A stretch of DNA of 28,745 nucleotides from a virus, in UHGV virus genome UHGV-0139114. One strand, written 5' to 3'. This document shows, one piece after another, positions 3,238 through 8,918 of the stretch. The translations under genes and the position numbers were made by a program. Every line of letters begins with the position of its first letter. Positions within the stretch are counted from its first letter, which is position 1. The notes below the pieces were generated by a model that had not been told where the DNA came from, made no database searches, and saw nothing but the letters and a program-made list of their open reading frames with translations.

Positions 3238-3509
3238 GTATTCGTATTGAAATTGGCGAACGTTATGTCGTTACCAGTGACAGCTTTCAGTTTATTCTCC
3301 ACGAGAAAAAGAGAGCGGAAAGCGGTAAAAACGCCGGTCAGGAATGGCTGGCGGTGGTTGGTTATTATCCGAAATTAAGCCAGCTCGTTTCCGGCCTGAT
3401 GCATCACGATATTCTGACCGGAAGCGCAAAGTCTTTTGCTGATTTAAACGCGCAGGTTGAGCAACTCAGCAGGCGTTGTTCAGAGGCTTTTGGCTCATAT
3501 GGCCGTTAA
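3234..3509 (+). CDS. Hypothetical early protein (91 aa)
   Basis: ORF with GGAG upstream, overlapping the neighbouring genes at both ends. Confidence 0.5.
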   Translation: MSIRIEIGERYVVTSDSFQFILHEKKRAESGKNAGQEWLAVVGYYPKLSQLVSGLMHHDILTGSAKSFADLNAQVEQLSRRCSEAFGSYGR

Positions 3510-5805
3510 AGCCTCCGGGCGTTTTGTCCCTCCGTCAGCATTTGCTGCAGGCACCGGTAAGGCGTTTACCGGTGCTTATGCATGGAACGCGCCACGCGAG
3601 GCTGTCGGGCGCGAAAGACCCCTTACACGTGACGAGATGCGTCAGGTGCAAGGTGTTTTATCCACGATTAACCGCCTGCCTTACTTTTTGCGCTCGCTGT
3701 TTACTTCACGCTATGACTACATCCGGCGCAATAAAAGCCCGGTGCACGGGTTTTATTTCCTCACATCCACTTTTCAGCGTCGTTTATGGCCGCGCATTGA
3801 GCGTGTGAATCAGCGTCATGAAATGAACGCCGACGCGTCGTTGCTGTTTCTGGCAGAGCGCGACCAGTATGCGCGCCTGCCGGGGATGAATGACAAGGAG
3901 CTGAAAAAGTTTGCCGCCCGTATCTCATCACAGCTTTTCATGATGTATGAGGAACTCTGCGATGCCTGGGTGGATGCGCATGGCGAGAAAGAATCGCTGT
4001 TTACGGATGAGGCGCAGGCTCACCTCTATGGTCATGTTGCTGGCGCTGCACGTGCTTTCAATATTTCCCCGCTCTACTGGAAAAAATACCGTAAAGGACA
4101 GATGACCACGAGGCAGGCATATTCTGCCATTGCCCGTCTGTTTAACGATGAGTGGTGGACTCATCAGCTTAAAGGCCAGCGTATGCGCTGGCATGAGGCG
4201 TTACTGATTGCTGTCGGGGAGGTGAATAAAGACCGTTCTCCTTATGCCAGTAAACATGCCATTCGTGATGTGCGTGCACGCCGCCAGGCAAATCTGGAAT
4301 TTCTTAAATCGTGTGACCTTGAAAACAGGGAAACCGGCGAGCGCATCGACCTTATCAGTAAGGTGATGGGCAGTATTTCTAATCCTGAAATTCGCCGGAT
4401 GGAGCTGATGAACACCATTGCCGGTATTGAGCGTTACGCCGCCGCAGAGGGGGATGTGGGGATGTTTATCACGCTGACCACGCCGTCAAAGTATCACCCG
4501 ACACGTCAGGTCGGAAAAGGCGAAAGTAAAACCGTCCAGCTTAATCACGGCTGGAATGATGAGGCATTTAATCCAAAGGATGCGCAGCGTTATCTCTGCC
4601 GTATCTGGAGCCTGATGCGCACGGCATTCAAGGATAATGATTTACAGGTCTACGGTTTGCGTGTCGTCGAGCCACACCACGACGGAACGCCGCACTGGCA
4701 TATGATGCTTTTTTGTAATCCACGCCAGCGTAACCAGATTATCGAAATCATGCGTCGCTATGCGCTCAAAGAGGATGGTGACGAAAGAGGAGCCGCGCGA
4801 AACCGTTTTCAGGCAAAGCACCTTAACCGGGGCGGTGCTGCGGGATATATCGCGAAATACATTTCAAAAAATATCGACGGCTATGCACTGGATGGTCAGC
4901 TCGATAACGATACCGGTAAGCCGCTTAAAGATACTGCCGCGGCTGTTACCGCATGGGCGTCAACGTGGCGCATCCCGCAATTTAAAACGGTTGGCCTGCC
5001 GACAATGGGGGCTTACCGTGAACTACGCAAATTGCCTCGCGGCGTCAGTATTGCTGATGAGTTTGACGAACGCGTCGAGGCTGCTCGCGCTGCCGCAGAC
5101 AGTGGTGATTTTGCGTTGTATATCAGCGCGCAGGGTGGGGCAAATGTCCCGCGCGATTGTCAGACTGTCAGGGTTGCCCGTAGCCCGTCGGATGACGTCA
5201 ACGAGTACGAGGAAGAAGTCGAGAGAGTGGTCGGCATTTACGCGCCGCATCTCGGCGCGCGTCATATTCATATCACCAGAACCACGGACTGGCGCATTGT
5301 TCCGAAATTTCCGGTCGTTGAGCCTTTGACTTTAAAAAGCGGCATCGCCGCGCCTCGGAGTCCTGTCAATAACTGTGGAAAGCTCACCGGTGGTGATACT
5401 TCGTTACCGGCTCCCACACCTTCTGAGCACGCCGCAGCCCTGCTTAATCTGGTTGATGACGGTGTTATCGAATGGAATGACCCGGAGGTCGTGAGGGCGC
5501 TCAGGGGCGCATTAAAACACGGCCTGAGAACACCAAACCGTCAGCAAAGAAACGGAAGCCCGTTAAAAGCGCATGAAATAGCGCCATCGGCCAGGCTGAC
5601 CCGGTTGGAGCGTATGCAAATTACCCGTATCCGTGTTGACCTTGCTCAGAACGGCATCTGGCCTCAGCGATGGGAACTTGAGGCGCTGGCGCGTGGCGCG
5701 ACCGTAAATTATGACGGGAAAAAATTCACGTATCCGGTCACTGATGAGTGGCCGGGATTCTCAACAGTAATGGAGTGGACATCATGGCAAAAATTCACGA
5801 GGTAA
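3499..5805 (+). CDS. A: Rolling-circle replication initiator endonuclease, P2 gpA-like (start at ATG 3499; track start 3457 is TTG)
   Basis: From the 3499 ATG the protein begins MAVKASGRFVPPSAF, which I recall as the P2 gpA N-terminus; contains HWHMMLF and YIAKYISKNIDGY, typical of rolling-circle initiators with the active-site tyrosines. Confidence 0.9.
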   Translation: MAVKASGRFVPPSAFAAGTGKAFTGAYAWNAPREAVGRERPLTRDEMRQVQGVLSTINRLPYFLRSLFTSRYDYIRRNKSPVHGFYFLTSTFQRRLWPRIERVNQRHEMNADASLLFLAERDQYARLPGMNDKELKKFAARISSQLFMMYEELCDAWVDAHGEKESLFTDEAQAHLYGHVAGAARAFNISPLYWKKYRKGQMTTRQAYSAIARLFNDEWWTHQLKGQRMRWHEALLIAVGEVNKDRSPYASKHAIRDVRARRQANLEFLKSCDLENRETGERIDLISKVMGSISNPEIRRMELMNTIAGIERYAAAEGDVGMFITLTTPSKYHPTRQVGKGESKTVQLNHGWNDEAFNPKDAQRYLCRIWSLMRTAFKDNDLQVYGLRVVEPHHDGTPHWHMMLFCNPRQRNQIIEIMRRYALKEDGDERGAARNRFQAKHLNRGGAAGYIAKYISKNIDGYALDGQLDNDTGKPLKDTAAAVTAWASTWRIPQFKTVGLPTMGAYRELRKLPRGVSIADEFDERVEAARAAADSGDFALYISAQGGANVPRDCQTVRVARSPSDDVNEYEEEVERVVGIYAPHLGARHIHITRTTDWRIVPKFPVVEPLTLKSGIAAPRSPVNNCGKLTGGDTSLPAPTPSEHAAALLNLVDDGVIEWNDPEVVRALRGALKHGLRTPNRQQRNGSPLKAHEIAPSARLTRLERMQITRIRVDLAQNGIWPQRWELEALARGATVNYDGKKFTYPVTDEWPGFSTVMEWTSWQKFTR

Positions 5806-6236
5806 AGCTGCACGCAAAATATTTCGACCTTGTGCTGGAAGGAAAGAAACGTGCAGAGTTTCGGAAAAATGACCGTAATTATGAGCGCGGGGACACGCTG
5901 ATTTTGCATGAATGGGTGCAGGGTGTGTTTACGGGGCGAAAGGTTGAAGCCCGGATAACAGATGTTACTGACCTGTCAGACTGGCTGGAAGATTATGTCT
6001 TGCTAAGTATTGAGCTGCTTAATACAAGCGCATATGAGATTGTGAACTGGAAAGAACTTAGTGAGCGTGGTCTGGTATTCAGAATTAATCATGAAATTAT
6101 GCATCAGCTCGGCCTTGCTGTTATGTATGAACCAGAGACGGGGATGTCTGGCGGGGCAATGGTTACCACGGATGGAGCATGGAACTATTCAGATGAACAG
6201 ATTGAGAGTGCAAAGCAAAACGGGTGGCTTGGATAA
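5784..6236 (+). CDS. DUF3850-like (ASCH/PUA-like fold) protein with a C-terminal extension (150 aa from ATG 5784)
   Basis: N-terminal 60 aa (KIHEVKLHAKYFDLVLEGKKRAEFRKNDRNYERGDTL) look like DUF3850 from memory; track start 5748 is GTG, and ATG 5784 has GGAG 9 nt upstream. Confidence 0.55.
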   Translation: MAKIHEVKLHAKYFDLVLEGKKRAEFRKNDRNYERGDTLILHEWVQGVFTGRKVEARITDVTDLSDWLEDYVLLSIELLNTSAYEIVNWKELSERGLVFRINHEIMHQLGLAVMYEPETGMSGGAMVTTDGAWNYSDEQIESAKQNGWLG

Positions 6237-6442
6237 TGCACGGAATACCAGGCGAGATACCGCAACATAACACTAAAAATATCAAGCTGATGGCTATTGT
6301 TCACCGTCTACAGCAGATTATGGTCAACGAAAATCTGACGCCTGACGAGCTGGTCGGGTGTGCTGAAATAGTCCGGGATAATTACGGGCGGTTTAACTAT
6401 ATCGGTCAGTCCAGAGTTGCGCCACCACCACGCAGACGATAG
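6236..6442 (+). CDS. Small hypothetical protein (68 aa), start overlapping the DUF3850 stop (TAATG)
   Basis: ATG 6236 shares one base with the upstream stop TAA at 6234-6236; no family recognised. Confidence 0.4.
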   Translation: MHGIPGEIPQHNTKNIKLMAIVHRLQQIMVNENLTPDELVGCAEIVRDNYGRFNYIGQSRVAPPPRRR

Positions 6443-6515
6443 AGAACGCCGCCAGTCGTGAAACTTGTTTTCAGGGCTGGCGGGGTTGAACAACGAGCGA
6501 AGTGAGGCGTTAGCA

Positions 6516-7457
6516 TTAAGTTAATTTTAATGAATGGTACTCTATCGAGCTGATTGTAGATGCGATATATTTACGATCATTTACAGAGAGTATTGCCGCT
6601 AGTAGACGACATACCAGAGCCTGCATTTGTAGCAATATATCGCTACCATATTGACAATCATTGATACTAGAGAAACCAAGCGGTTGCCCATTAAAAATGG
6701 CTTCATGAAAATTATCATTGCGTATAACTGAAACATTACATTCATCTGTTGCCCATGACGGGATTTTTACACCGTAATTTTCGCACATCCAATATACTCT
6801 ATTTTGATGAGATGGTTTTTTCTCTTTAATGACTTTATCCCTTTCATCCCATGCTATAGCAAAACAGCAATCAAGAGCCATATAAAGATACTGGAATTTC
6901 TCAAAGGAAAGGTATAGTGGGTTATGTGATAGGAATAGGGAGTGTATCACCGCAGCTATTCTTTTAATGGAGCGATCATCTTTTTGTTTGTCTTTTATAT
7001 AGTTAAGTGCTAGCTCTATTACTTCTTTTTCAGAGCATCCAACGAGAATAAAGTCAGTTAACTTAGTGGGCTTGATAGTGGTTGCATCAAGAAAACCAGC
7101 GTCAGTGGTTGTCAATCTTATACCCTTGAAAAAAGAGAGGCACCACACAACAAAGTTGAGAGTTTCTAACGAGGATGTGTTTTTTAATTTTAGTGTGTGC
7201 GTTTTGGGCATGCCGAATACTCGGTAACTATAAGGCATTGTGCATGTGTCACCATTAAGGTTATATACCTTTCGATTCCCAGGGTATATCCAACCATTAA
7301 CAACGTTTTTATCATTGTTAATACGTTCCACTTTCTCAATAAGACCGGGTAAAGTACGCAAAGAAAATTGTTCAGTCTCAATGTTAACTTCTACTGGATA
7401 GTATCCAAACTCCGAAATAATCTCATTTGGTTGCTGTTCATCAACTTCACCTTGCAT
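6516..7457 (-). CDS. Orphan 313-aa protein with an RNxxxH (HEPN-like) motif; candidate abortive-infection / defence nuclease
   Basis: Long ORF on the opposite strand to the surrounding phage genes in an AT-rich segment; GGAG 7 nt upstream of ATG 7457; motif RNDNFH at residues 246-251 (nt 6705-6722). Not a P2 gene that I recognise. Confidence 0.6.
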   Translation of the reverse strand: MQGEVDEQQPNEIISEFGYYPVEVNIETEQFSLRTLPGLIEKVERINNDKNVVNGWIYPGNRKVYNLNGDTCTMPYSYRVFGMPKTHTLKLKNTSSLETLNFVVWCLSFFKGIRLTTTDAGFLDATTIKPTKLTDFILVGCSEKEVIELALNYIKDKQKDDRSIKRIAAVIHSLFLSHNPLYLSFEKFQYLYMALDCCFAIAWDERDKVIKEKKPSHQNRVYWMCENYGVKIPSWATDECNVSVIRNDNFHEAIFNGQPLGFSSINDCQYGSDILLQMQALVCRLLAAILSVNDRKYIASTISSIEYHSLKLT

Positions 7458-7695
7458 AACTTTCTCCGTTCAAAAACAGGCACGATAATTCTCGTAAGCC
7501 TATCATGTTCGCAAAGTATCCATACCTGTGGATTTTGTAAATTTAAGTTGATTTGTCATTAAATAAGCCGTTGCATGCAACAAGTGAATGTTTTTGCATG
7601 CGTCGGGGATGTCCGTTCAGGCTGCGTGCGGTCAGGACTGGTGCGGATCCATAGTATCTATGCAACTGCATTAAAACCGCCCCATGAAGCGGGCG

Positions 7696-7714
7696 GGCGA
7701 GGCGGGGAAAGCAC
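7696..7714. other. cos: cos site: 19-nt sequence GGCGAGGCGGGGAAAGCAC, the cohesive-end sequence of P2 as I recall it
   Basis: Exact string present about 170 bp from the 3' end of the portal gene, the expected location of P2 cos. Confidence 0.65.
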
Positions 7715-7856
7715 TGCGCGCTGGCGGTGGTGCTGATTTTATTTTTTCAGCGTCTCAGCGCGTCGTGACGGCGCTTAGTCTGCCCGTTGAGGCGCTGGTG
7801 TGTCTGCGGGGTGTTTTGTGCGGTGGTGAGCGTGTGAGGGCGTGATGACGGGGTGT

Positions 7857-7878
7857 AAAAAAGCCGCCCGCAGGCGGC
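7857..7878 (-). terminator. Rho-independent terminator after the P-Q operon
   Basis: GC hairpin GCCGCC / GGCGGC (7863-7868, 7873-7878) with a 4-nt loop; on the minus strand it is followed by T6 (plus-strand A-run 7857-7862), directly downstream of the Q stop at 7884. Confidence 0.7.
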
Positions 7879-7883
7879 GATGT

Positions 7884-8918
7884 TCAGCCGTTGTCAGTGT
7901 CCAGTGAGTAGTTTTTAAAGCGGATGACCTCCTGACCGAGCCAGCCGTTTATCTCGCGGATCCTGTCCTGTAGCGGGATAAGCTCATTGCGGACAAAGAC
8001 CTTTGCCACTTTCTCAATATCACCCAGCGACCCGACGTTCTCCGGCTTGCCACCCATCAACTGAAAGGGGATGCGGTGCGCATCCAGCAGGTCAGCGGCG
8101 CTGGCTTTTTTGATATTAAAAAAATCGTCCTTCGTCGCCACTTCACTGAGCGGGATAATTTTAATGCCGTCGGCTTTCCCCTGCGGGGCATAGAGAAACA
8201 GGTTTTTAAAGTTGTTGCGGCCTTTCGACTTCACCATGTTTTCGCGAAGCATTTCGATATCGTTGCGATCCTGCACGGCATCGGTGACGTACATGATGTA
8301 TCCGGCATGTGCGCCGTTTTCGTAATACTTGCGGCGGAACAGCGTGGCCGACTCATTCAGCCAGGCAGAGTTAAGGGCGCTGAGATATTCCGGCAGACCG
8401 TACAGCTCCTGATTAATATCCGGCTCCAGCAGGTGAAACACGGAGTCGGGCGCGAAGGCTGTCGGCTCGTTGAAGGAGGGCACCCACCAGTAAACATCCT
8501 CCTCCACGCCACGGCGGGTATATTTTGCCGGTGAGGTTTCCAGTCTGATGACCTTACCGGTGGTGCTGTAACGCTTTTCCAGAAACGCATTACCGAACAC
8601 CAGAAAATCCAGCACAAAGCGGCTGAAATCCTGCTGGGAAAGCCACGGATGCGGGATAAATGTCGAGGCCAGAATATTGCGTTTAACGTAAATCGGTGAG
8701 CTGTGATGCACGGCAGCACGCAGGCTTTTTGCCAGACCGGTAAAGCTGACCGGTGGCTCATACCATCTGCCGTTACTGATGCACTCGACGTAATCCAGAA
8801 TGTCACGGCGGTCGAGTACCGGCACCGGCTCACCAAAGGTGAATGCCTCCATTTTCGGGGCGCTGGCGGTGATTGTTTTTGCCGCAGGTTGCGGCGTTTT
8901 CCCTTTTTTCTTGCTCAT
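7884..8918 (-). CDS. Q: Portal protein, P2 gpQ-like (344 aa)
   Basis: Length and position next to the terminase gene; start ATG overlaps the terminase stop by one base. Confidence 0.9.
   Translation of the reverse strand: MSKKKGKTPQPAAKTITASAPKMEAFTFGEPVPVLDRRDILDYVECISNGRWYEPPVSFTGLAKSLRAAVHHSSPIYVKRNILASTFIPHPWLSQQDFSRFVLDFLVFGNAFLEKRYSTTGKVIRLETSPAKYTRRGVEEDVYWWVPSFNEPTAFAPDSVFHLLEPDINQELYGLPEYLSALNSAWLNESATLFRRKYYENGAHAGYIMYVTDAVQDRNDIEMLRENMVKSKGRNNFKNLFLYAPQGKADGIKIIPLSEVATKDDFFNIKKASAADLLDAHRIPFQLMGGKPENVGSLGDIEKVAKVFVRNELIPLQDRIREINGWLGQEVIRFKNYSLDTDNG

Follow-up and report, generated by a model that had tools for sequence, protein, structure and literature searches.

The closest described relative of the genes examined here is orf91 of phage P2 (AAD03307), which occupies the same place after the replication gene A. 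Our literature search on orf91 returned only a table that gives its function as unknown, and our search for papers on DUF7415, the second domain of the protein described below, returned none. P2 Orf91 consists of a DUF3850 domain followed by an unrelated tail, with tin/old next in the genome. In the GenBank record of phage Wphi, DNA corresponding to the intact gene is split into gp91 and gp92 by single-base indels, unlike the E. coli W RefSeq genome, in which the pair is intact. The junction with A reads ATGATG in both P2 and Wphi; there the stop codon of A overlaps the start of the next gene.

DUF3850 is an ASCH/PUA-like domain. In characterised ASCH proteins, the cleft serves to bind cytidine derivatives in RNA or to deacylate them. 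The amidohydrolases and RNA-binding proteins of this type that we compared were E. coli YqfB, T. thermophilus TthASCH, Z. mobilis ASCH and human TRIP4/EOLA1. Among DUF3850 proteins proper, PDB 3IUW (E. faecalis; a structural-genomics entry named 'activating signal cointegrator') is a stand-alone 83-aa domain that, unlike the protein in question, lacks DUF7415. The domain is also shared with phage-enriched ParB-CTPase-DUF3850 prophage fusions; however, these have an N-terminal ParB-CTPase fold and an adjoining parA, and our gene has neither. According to a 2026 preprint, ASCH proteins of the GKER type strip ac4C from tRNA and depend on the Lys and Glu of the conserved octapeptide for this.

We analyzed a 28,745-nt stretch of viral DNA (UHGV-0139114; hereafter the window), from a P2-like prophage, in which gene A is followed by two plus-strand genes, designated X and S (Table 1). 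The first-pass annotation had a DUF3850-like ORF beginning in the 3' end of A and sharing a base of its stop with the ATG of a small ORF, and both placements were exact: X overlaps the last 22 nt of A (A stop, TAA at 5803-5805), and its own TAA has one base in common with the S start codon. From cox to S, the plus-strand genes overlap or abut without a break. X and S close a P2-type early operon, cox-B-orf80-83-A-X-S, as its final cistrons, which bears out the earlier description of a co-translated two-gene unit at the end of that operon, in that the pair is tightly coupled.

Table 1. Features of the X-S locus (window coordinates)
Feature	Position	Strand	Basis or detail
Gene A (replication, P2 gpA family)	3457..5805	+	Pfam Phage_GPA 1.1e-123; ORF coordinates
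Shine-Dalgarno-like GGAG	5772..5775	+	within A 3' end; X ATG 8 nt downstream; read from sequence
X (150 aa, two domains; full-length P2 orf91 homologue)	5784..6236	+	ATG 5784, TAA 6234-6236
DUF3850 / ASCH-type PUA-like beta-barrel domain, X aa 4-76	5793..6011	+	
DUF7415 domain of X	6039..6227	+	Pfam envelope aa 86-127; conservation to ~aa 148
TAATG stop-start overlap X/S	6234..6238	+	read from sequence
S (68 aa)	6236..6442	+	ATG 6236, TAG 6440-6442
Hairpin directly 3' of S stop	6445..6487	+	MFE -34.2 kcal/mol, z -3.8
GTTGAACAACGAG, nearly invariant unpaired motif 3' of hairpin	6485..6497	+	alignment
ORF313, variable hotspot cargo, outside X-S unit	6516..7457	-	phrog_5937

X is orthologous to P2 orf91, being homologous to it and lying on the same strand as A and directly downstream; only the first ~74 codons are common with P2 itself. 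Over the DUF3850 domain, DNA identity is 96%, and homology between P2 and the window ends at position 6004. X is the intact form of orf91, of which P2 keeps the DUF3850 part only. RefSeq genomes and phage vB_YpM_46 already label the product 'DUF3850 domain-containing protein'. It gave a full-length match to phrog_1812 (5.9e-81) and is under purifying selection across clades, with saturated synonymous sites.

The N-terminal domain had been assigned to DUF3850 at first reading, and the profile search agreed: X scored 64.5 bits against Pfam DUF3850 (PF12961; cut-off 22.9) over profile positions 1-77 of 77. It scored 41.8 bits against Pfam ASCH, phrog_986 matched the DUF3850 part (6.8e-42), and X also matched the fold of 3IUW as well as ASCH folds. 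The octapeptide G20-K-K22-R-A-E25-F-R27 fits the ASCH pattern GxKxx[E/T/S]xR, is invariant in 52 of the 52 diverse DUF3850 proteins that we aligned and aligns with the YqfB catalytic motif (G19..K21..T24..R26). At the sequence level, however, DUF3850 resembles YqfB-type ASCH domains only marginally (hhalign probability 18%). It is some 25 residues shorter, and the helical segment with YqfB Glu74 is missing. Only the Lys/Glu dyad is present, and no residue of X could be aligned to Glu74. As DUF3850 is without the C-terminal segment bearing this residue, enzymatic activity is uncertain.

The C-terminal segment of about 80 aa had been thought an extra peculiar to this copy, but it proved to be a catalogued Pfam domain, DUF7415 (PF24187; 53 bits, cut-off 27; 4e-14), which is promiscuous among phages and occurs in 899 phage records, T4-like and T5-like phages among them. 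Its conserved motif is W.EL..RGL.FRIN.EI.H.LGLA...G.S.GA...DG.W.Y, and 20 diverse members have the invariant IN.E...GL...G.S residues in common with X. For X, AlphaFold gave pLDDT values of 33-50 over this domain, where the shallow alignment makes the model unreliable. A survey of the architectures of distant DUF3850 and DUF7415 proteins found no informative enzyme partners, only phage DUFs (DUF551, DUF1642), Cox and one weak ClpX-type zinc finger. We considered H103-E-I-M-H107 in DUF7415, which reads as HExxH, as a metalloprotease motif and rejected it, since several homologs have Tyr in place of the first His.

The small ORF was conserved together with the DUF3850-like gene. Of the 346 complete E. 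coli genomes that carry X, 345 have S contiguous with it, and S is the next gene at 78 of the 82 loci with full-length X from IMG/VR and other metagenome and genome contigs; a genome-contig scan yielded 2 loci only. The stop-start overlap takes two forms, TAATG in 49 loci of one clade and ATGA in 19 loci of a diverged clade whose X is only ~54% identical; Salmonella and Enterobacter phages at this level of X identity are among the loci. The two-gene unit is more than a chance arrangement, given the full-length PHROG matches, the purifying selection in both genes and the retention of the overlap in two geometries. The partnership is not obligatory, though, because S occurs without X or DUF7415 (in Salmonella phage PSP3 as gp37, and in a DUF2158-ORF226-S arrangement) and T4-like and T5-like phages carry DUF7415 but not S. 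At full length, X lacks the S core at loci L076-78 and L080.

We give roughly even chances to the reading that X and S form an accessory complex, co-translated from the early operon, that acts on RNA or another nucleic acid. Ribosomes terminating on X would re-initiate at the overlapping S start, so that both proteins are made together. By analogy with P2 biology, we infer that this would happen during lytic growth or induction, along with the replication proteins, and not in the repressed lysogen. The DUF3850 barrel, a minimal one of the ASCH type, keeps the GxKxxExR cleft, which may take an RNA, other nucleic-acid or modified-base substrate. DUF7415 is the second, small module, which many enterobacterial phages, lytic and temperate, carry alone or in different fusions, and S would act with this part of X, presumably by physical interaction of the two proteins. 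Beyond adjacency, a link between S and DUF7415 is suggested by two distant P2-like loci in which they are separate genes in the post-A stretch (L085, and L084, where an ASCH-like protein is a further separate gene) and by one metagenomic protein, P0195, in which an S-like N-terminus is fused to DUF7415 (hhalign 91%, E 1e-6; phrog_11386 7e-5). A search for relatives of this fusion returned only P0195 itself, a singleton on a 3.5-kb contig. The pair appears to be non-essential, since P2 lacks DUF7415 and S and, among ~2162 E. coli genomes containing P2-like A/Q DNA, only 378 have a megablast-level match to X. It might serve host take-over or counter-defense rather than act as a lysogen-protecting defense gene. 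By itself the pair matters little, as it is an ordinary, already catalogued accessory unit common in enterobacterial P2-like phages; a useful outcome is that P2 orf91 and DUF7415, the latter present in ~900 sequenced phages, gain a cheap, concrete hypothesis.

A more ambitious version, which we regard as improbable, is that DUF3850/ASCH, DUF7415 and S constitute a previously unrecognized three-module phage system, fused or split. In it, the GKER-type ASCH domain would erase or read a cytidine modification (e.g., ac4C on tRNA) on host RNA or nucleic acid early in infection, under the control of a DUF7415-S complex. If true, such a system would reprogram translation or blunt host defense.

Rather than serving host take-over, X (through DUF7415) and S might help the initiator whose gene lies just upstream, dealing for instance with RNA or displaced single strands at the rolling-circle origin. 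The pair shares its transcript with the replication genes, and DUF7415 genes directly follow, overlapping or abutting, two unrelated initiator genes, P2 gpA and a P4-alpha-like primase (L083, L094). However, P2 replicates without DUF7415 or S, X is absent from most E. coli P2-like prophages, and in T4-like phages DUF7415 adjoins nrdD or small ORFs instead of replication initiators. We consider a role in replication rather unlikely.

The accessory complex also has to be weighed against a toxin-antitoxin or abortive-infection pair, in which one product neutralizes the other. The genes are small, their stop and start overlap, and a defense hotspot adjoins them. Even so, this reading is very unlikely: the best match to the PADLOC defense models had an E of 0.022 for X, with none for S, no toxin-antitoxin family was hit, and the partners do not show the obligate co-occurrence expected of type II systems, each gene being found without the other. 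The pair also belongs to a lytic early operon, a promoter consensus scan found no plus-strand promoter of its own, and X-S is conserved backbone, not variable cargo.

The limits of that backbone are visible downstream of S. The hairpin after the S stop is conserved (96.8% of cells paired over 22 distinct variants, with compensatory changes at 3 pairs). It was not called by a terminator consensus scan and has no T-run. The early operon probably has its 3' end here, with the hairpin as terminator or stabilizer and as the left anchor of a variable cassette. The motif that follows it, GTTGAACAACGAG, has one exact copy in the window; we dropped it as a paired recombination site, as it is absent from the right cassette border and from the A-gene region holding the P2 origin. 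An Rfam scan of 5600-8000 gave a chance snoRNA match only, far below threshold. In 55 of 86 loci, the conserved block including X-S ends at 6513-6517, just short of ORF313, where the homology of related phages to the window breaks, and GC falls from ~46% to ~36% across this border.

The cassette beyond (~6514-7659; GC 34-40%) holds the convergent 313-aa gene, which is ORF313 of P2-EC67; phrog_5937 was its only match, Pfam and PADLOC had no hit, and NCBIfam, like PADLOC, yielded nothing of use for ORF313, X or S. ORF313 is a swappable, low-GC cassette and variable hotspot cargo: between otherwise similar P2-like phages it varies as cargo does, whereas X-S does not. Published hotspot tables count 'DUF3850/ASCH + hypothetical ...' within the locus. 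The P2 defense hotspot, however, has its true left border after S and the hairpin, at 6513-6517, and X and S are therefore not to be counted as cargo or as partners of defense genes. It had been suggested that the pair might share a role with the 313-aa gene, and the adjacency of X-S and ORF313 in the window, in 7 E. coli genomes and in 3 phage records would fit a single three-gene system. This is highly improbable, as those 7 are the only ones of the 53 E. coli genomes with ORF313 to have X-S in the present arrangement, most of the 53 having DUF2158-ORF226-S upstream instead of X. In addition, X-S is accompanied by other cargo in ~345 genomes, and ORF313 is carried by 8 of the 90 loci examined. 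X-S is unrelated to ORF313.

Finally, we examined the product of S. It matched phrog_11386 over its full length (7.4e-40; residues 1-68 on profile positions 1-69 of 69), and its homologs occur solely in P2-like phages (Peduoviridae). The predicted structure is a helical hairpin (helices at aa 10-31 and 36-59; AlphaFold pLDDT above 89 at aa 21-50) that ends in a basic tail, PPPRRR; Cys42 is invariant. A fold search with the model gave 0 hits in the PDB and nothing significant in BFVD. With dN/dS at 0.08-0.17 against diverged homologs at saturated dS, a conserved helical core and confidently modeled helices, S is a real gene. The alternative of a chance ORF in a 3' untranslated region could draw on the lack of a Pfam or NCBIfam family and on records that leave S unannotated, but is almost certainly wrong, considering this dN/dS, a core more than 90% conserved between clades whose X is 54% identical, the PHROG match and the conserved overlapping start. 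Homologs 78-98% identical over the core include PSP3 gp37, located after tumA/tumB, and proteins that PGAP calls 'meiotically up-regulated 80 protein'; these are stand-alone genes with no X before them, and the name that PGAP uses is wrong for a phage protein.

The window is an E. coli prophage of the P2-like (Peduovirus) type; over 5600-7900 its identity is 100% with E. coli KC-Dl-1 and 99.8-99.9% with the Yersinia phages VB-YPM-4 and vB_YpM_46. The P2 early genes form a + strand chain of overlapping or abutting genes, closed by the replication gene A (Pfam Phage_GPA, 1.1e-123) and followed by X, the DUF3850 gene, and S, the small ORF directly after it; the portal and terminase genes lie downstream on the - strand. 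GC content falls from 55-59% in A to 43-48% in X-S and to 34-40% across the cassette of the convergent 313-aa gene (ORF313). X-S is best read as an accessory unit, both conserved and dispensable, that belongs to the lytic early operon and in which a putative nucleic-acid- or modified-cytidine-binding domain of ASCH type would be tethered to DUF7415, and S would be a small helical partner made together with X. The main rival is a replication-accessory role for the pair. Two other proposals, a defence cassette and a toxin-antitoxin pair, were rejected.

Coordinates of the early operon end in the window and of two more distant P2-like loci
Feature	Location	Strand	Description
Stop of A	5803-5805	+	
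X	ATG 5784 to TAA 6234-6236	+	150 aa
S	ATG 6236 to TAG 6440-6442	+	68 aa
Hairpin	6445-6487		directly after S stop; -34 kcal/mol, z -3.8
L084	4827-6066		after A: DUF7415 (123 aa), 116-aa ORF, ASCH-like protein, S-like
L085	4827-5647		after A: DUF7415, 73-aa ORF, S-like

The first-pass annotation had placed X and S exactly. X begins inside A, 22 nt ahead of its stop, with GGAG 8 nt upstream of the start. Gene A of the window thus extends 22 nt into X (5784-5805), unlike its counterparts in P2 and Wphi, where a change of one base (ACATGATGG vs ACATCATGG) makes A stop at a TGA overlapping the start codon. The N-terminal domain of X is DUF3850, as had been proposed (Pfam, aa 4-76, 64.5 bits), and the related ASCH model also matches. 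The C-terminal segment, earlier described as an extra extension, is present, but it matches Pfam DUF7415 (aa 86-127, 53 bits) and is therefore a catalogued domain. The only solved relative found by sequence was 3IUW (5e-13), a structural-genomics DUF3850 protein, and the AlphaFold model of X is usable for DUF3850 (pLDDT 74-83) but not for DUF7415 (pLDDT 33-50). The ASCH octapeptide, G20-K-K22-R-A-E25-F-R27, aligns to G19/K21/T24/R26 of YqfB; its residues and the following N-D-R and G-D do not vary among 52 diverse DUF3850 proteins. A 2026 preprint reports deacetylation of tRNA ac4C by ASCH proteins of the 'GKER' type, with the motif Lys and Glu required, which by analogy may offer a lead to the activity of X.

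X is orf91 of P2, the gene next after A. The P2 DNA shows 96% identity to the window, but only as far as 6004, where the DUF3850 domain ends; beyond this point it continues into an unrelated tail, followed by tin/old. The DNA of the window is shared through 6513 by the GenBank record of Wphi. In that record (AY135739, 3182-3850) several 1-nt indels break X-S into 'gp91' and 'gp92'; the E. coli W RefSeq genome has the pair intact (659-nt), and old sequencing errors probably account for the indels. A published listing gives the function of Orf91 as unknown. Rousset et al. include the X gene in their gpA-gpQ inventory, as 'DUF3850/ASCH + hypothetical ...' and as protein 3 of 'old-tin' (PMC9122126); we saw it neither discussed in their main text nor included with their tested systems. 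The pair is already catalogued, as P2 orf91, as a RefSeq 'DUF3850 domain-containing protein' plus hypothetical protein, and as PHROGs 1812 (matching X end to end) and 11386 (matching S along its full length). Novelty is therefore low, and the remaining value is that two widespread phage DUFs gain a hypothesis open to testing.

S is a real gene, although Pfam and NCBIfam scans assigned it no family. Its 51 distinct homologues share a near-invariant core, IKLMA[IV]VHRLQQIM[IV]NENLTP.ELVGCAE[IV]VRDN, with PPPRR as the usual C-terminus; in comparisons with homologues of the diverged clade, synonymous sites have reached saturation (pS 0.64-0.77) with dN/dS of 0.08-0.17, and X shows the same pattern. 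The predicted structure has two helices (aa 10-31 and 36-59) that form a hairpin, and disordered ends (pLDDT >89 for aa 21-50); for this model fold searches returned no structural neighbours. By tblastn, S is restricted to P2-like phages (34 records). NCBI PGAP calls N-terminally shortened homologues 'meiotically up-regulated 80 protein' (L091 2782-2937; P0103, P0151), a fungal name and clearly a misannotation.

The suggested conservation of the small ORF alongside X was borne out. The two are contiguous in 345 of 346 complete E. coli genomes carrying at least 80% of X, and S adjoins full-length X in 78 of 82 loci from IMG/VR and other contigs (L030 was counted as S-positive after its alignment was inspected). 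Coupling of X to S holds up as well: X stop and S start jointly form TAATG here and in 49 of these loci, and ATGA in 19, the latter in phages of Salmonella and Enterobacter type, where identity in X is down to ~54%. Since both overlap geometries persist across saturated divergence, the sequences argue for translational coupling under selection. There are exceptions to the link. In four loci X is followed by a mere 34-codon remnant of S, reduced to the overlapping start and the PPPRRR end; in L076 (5462-5566), L077 and L078 the overlap is ATGA and the helical core is gone. S stands alone in PSP3, as gp37 after tumA/tumB, and another common E. coli arrangement is DUF2158 and ORF226 followed by S, there again bearing the fungal PGAP name. 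In four E. coli strains (matches H32, H34-H36) the locus is matched in two pieces, separated by ~1.3 kb more than in the window, and the annotation there includes an IS2 transposase; since one of these strains also gives a partial match to S only, the insertion may lie in or near the S gene.

DUF7415 is widely distributed, occurring in 899 phage records by tblastn, including T4-like (RB43, KP15) and T5-like phages, and the proteins that carry it are extended in many different ways at the N- or C-terminus. Directly after A, L084 and L085 encode a 123-aa DUF7415 protein, with S three and two genes further on, respectively; the ASCH-like protein of L084 has the octapeptide GEKTEEYR (hhalign 68% to X). 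Next to a P4-alpha-like primase, L083 has a gene that again ends in DUF7415, and in the metagenomic locus L094 (2597-3163) such a primase is directly followed by P0195, which joins an S-like N-terminus (hhalign 91%, E 1e-6; phrog_11386 7e-5), a weak ClpX-type zinc finger and DUF7415. This fusion is a singleton in a search for relatives. Taken together, the split genes, the primase-linked DUF7415 and the fusion suggest that S may act jointly with DUF7415 and, in a looser way, with the ASCH-type barrel.

A functional pairing of X-S with the 313-aa gene, which the first-pass annotation had raised, was rejected. That gene, ORF313 of P2-EC67, occurs in 53 E. coli genomes, only 7 of which have the window's arrangement; it also stands behind a diverged X type (L068, L082) and behind DUF2158-ORF226-S. 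Homology to the window ends at 6513, 6514, 6516 or 6517 in 55 of 86 loci with X-region homology and in most loci picks up again near 7660, beside cos. ORF313 is thus cargo separate from X-S. Its cassette spans 6516-7659 and has three different left-hand neighbours. ORF313 had no match in Pfam or PADLOC; it is listed in Table S5A of Rousset 2022, where we found no sign of its testing, and is a candidate defence gene of the P2 hotspot.

The hairpin after S is 96.8% paired among 22 distinct variants, with compensatory changes at 3 pairs, and is followed by a near-invariant GTTGAACAACGAG, the whole element covering 6445-6497. The hairpin lacks a T-run and was not called by a terminator scan. The homology of other P2-like phages to the window ends 16-20 nt past 6497. 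We infer that the hairpin bounds the early operon or forms its 3' end, and that it provides the left homology anchor for cassette exchange. The element is kept where the S core is deleted, and it occurs twice in PSP3 (L092, 3312-3376 and ~3715-3781).
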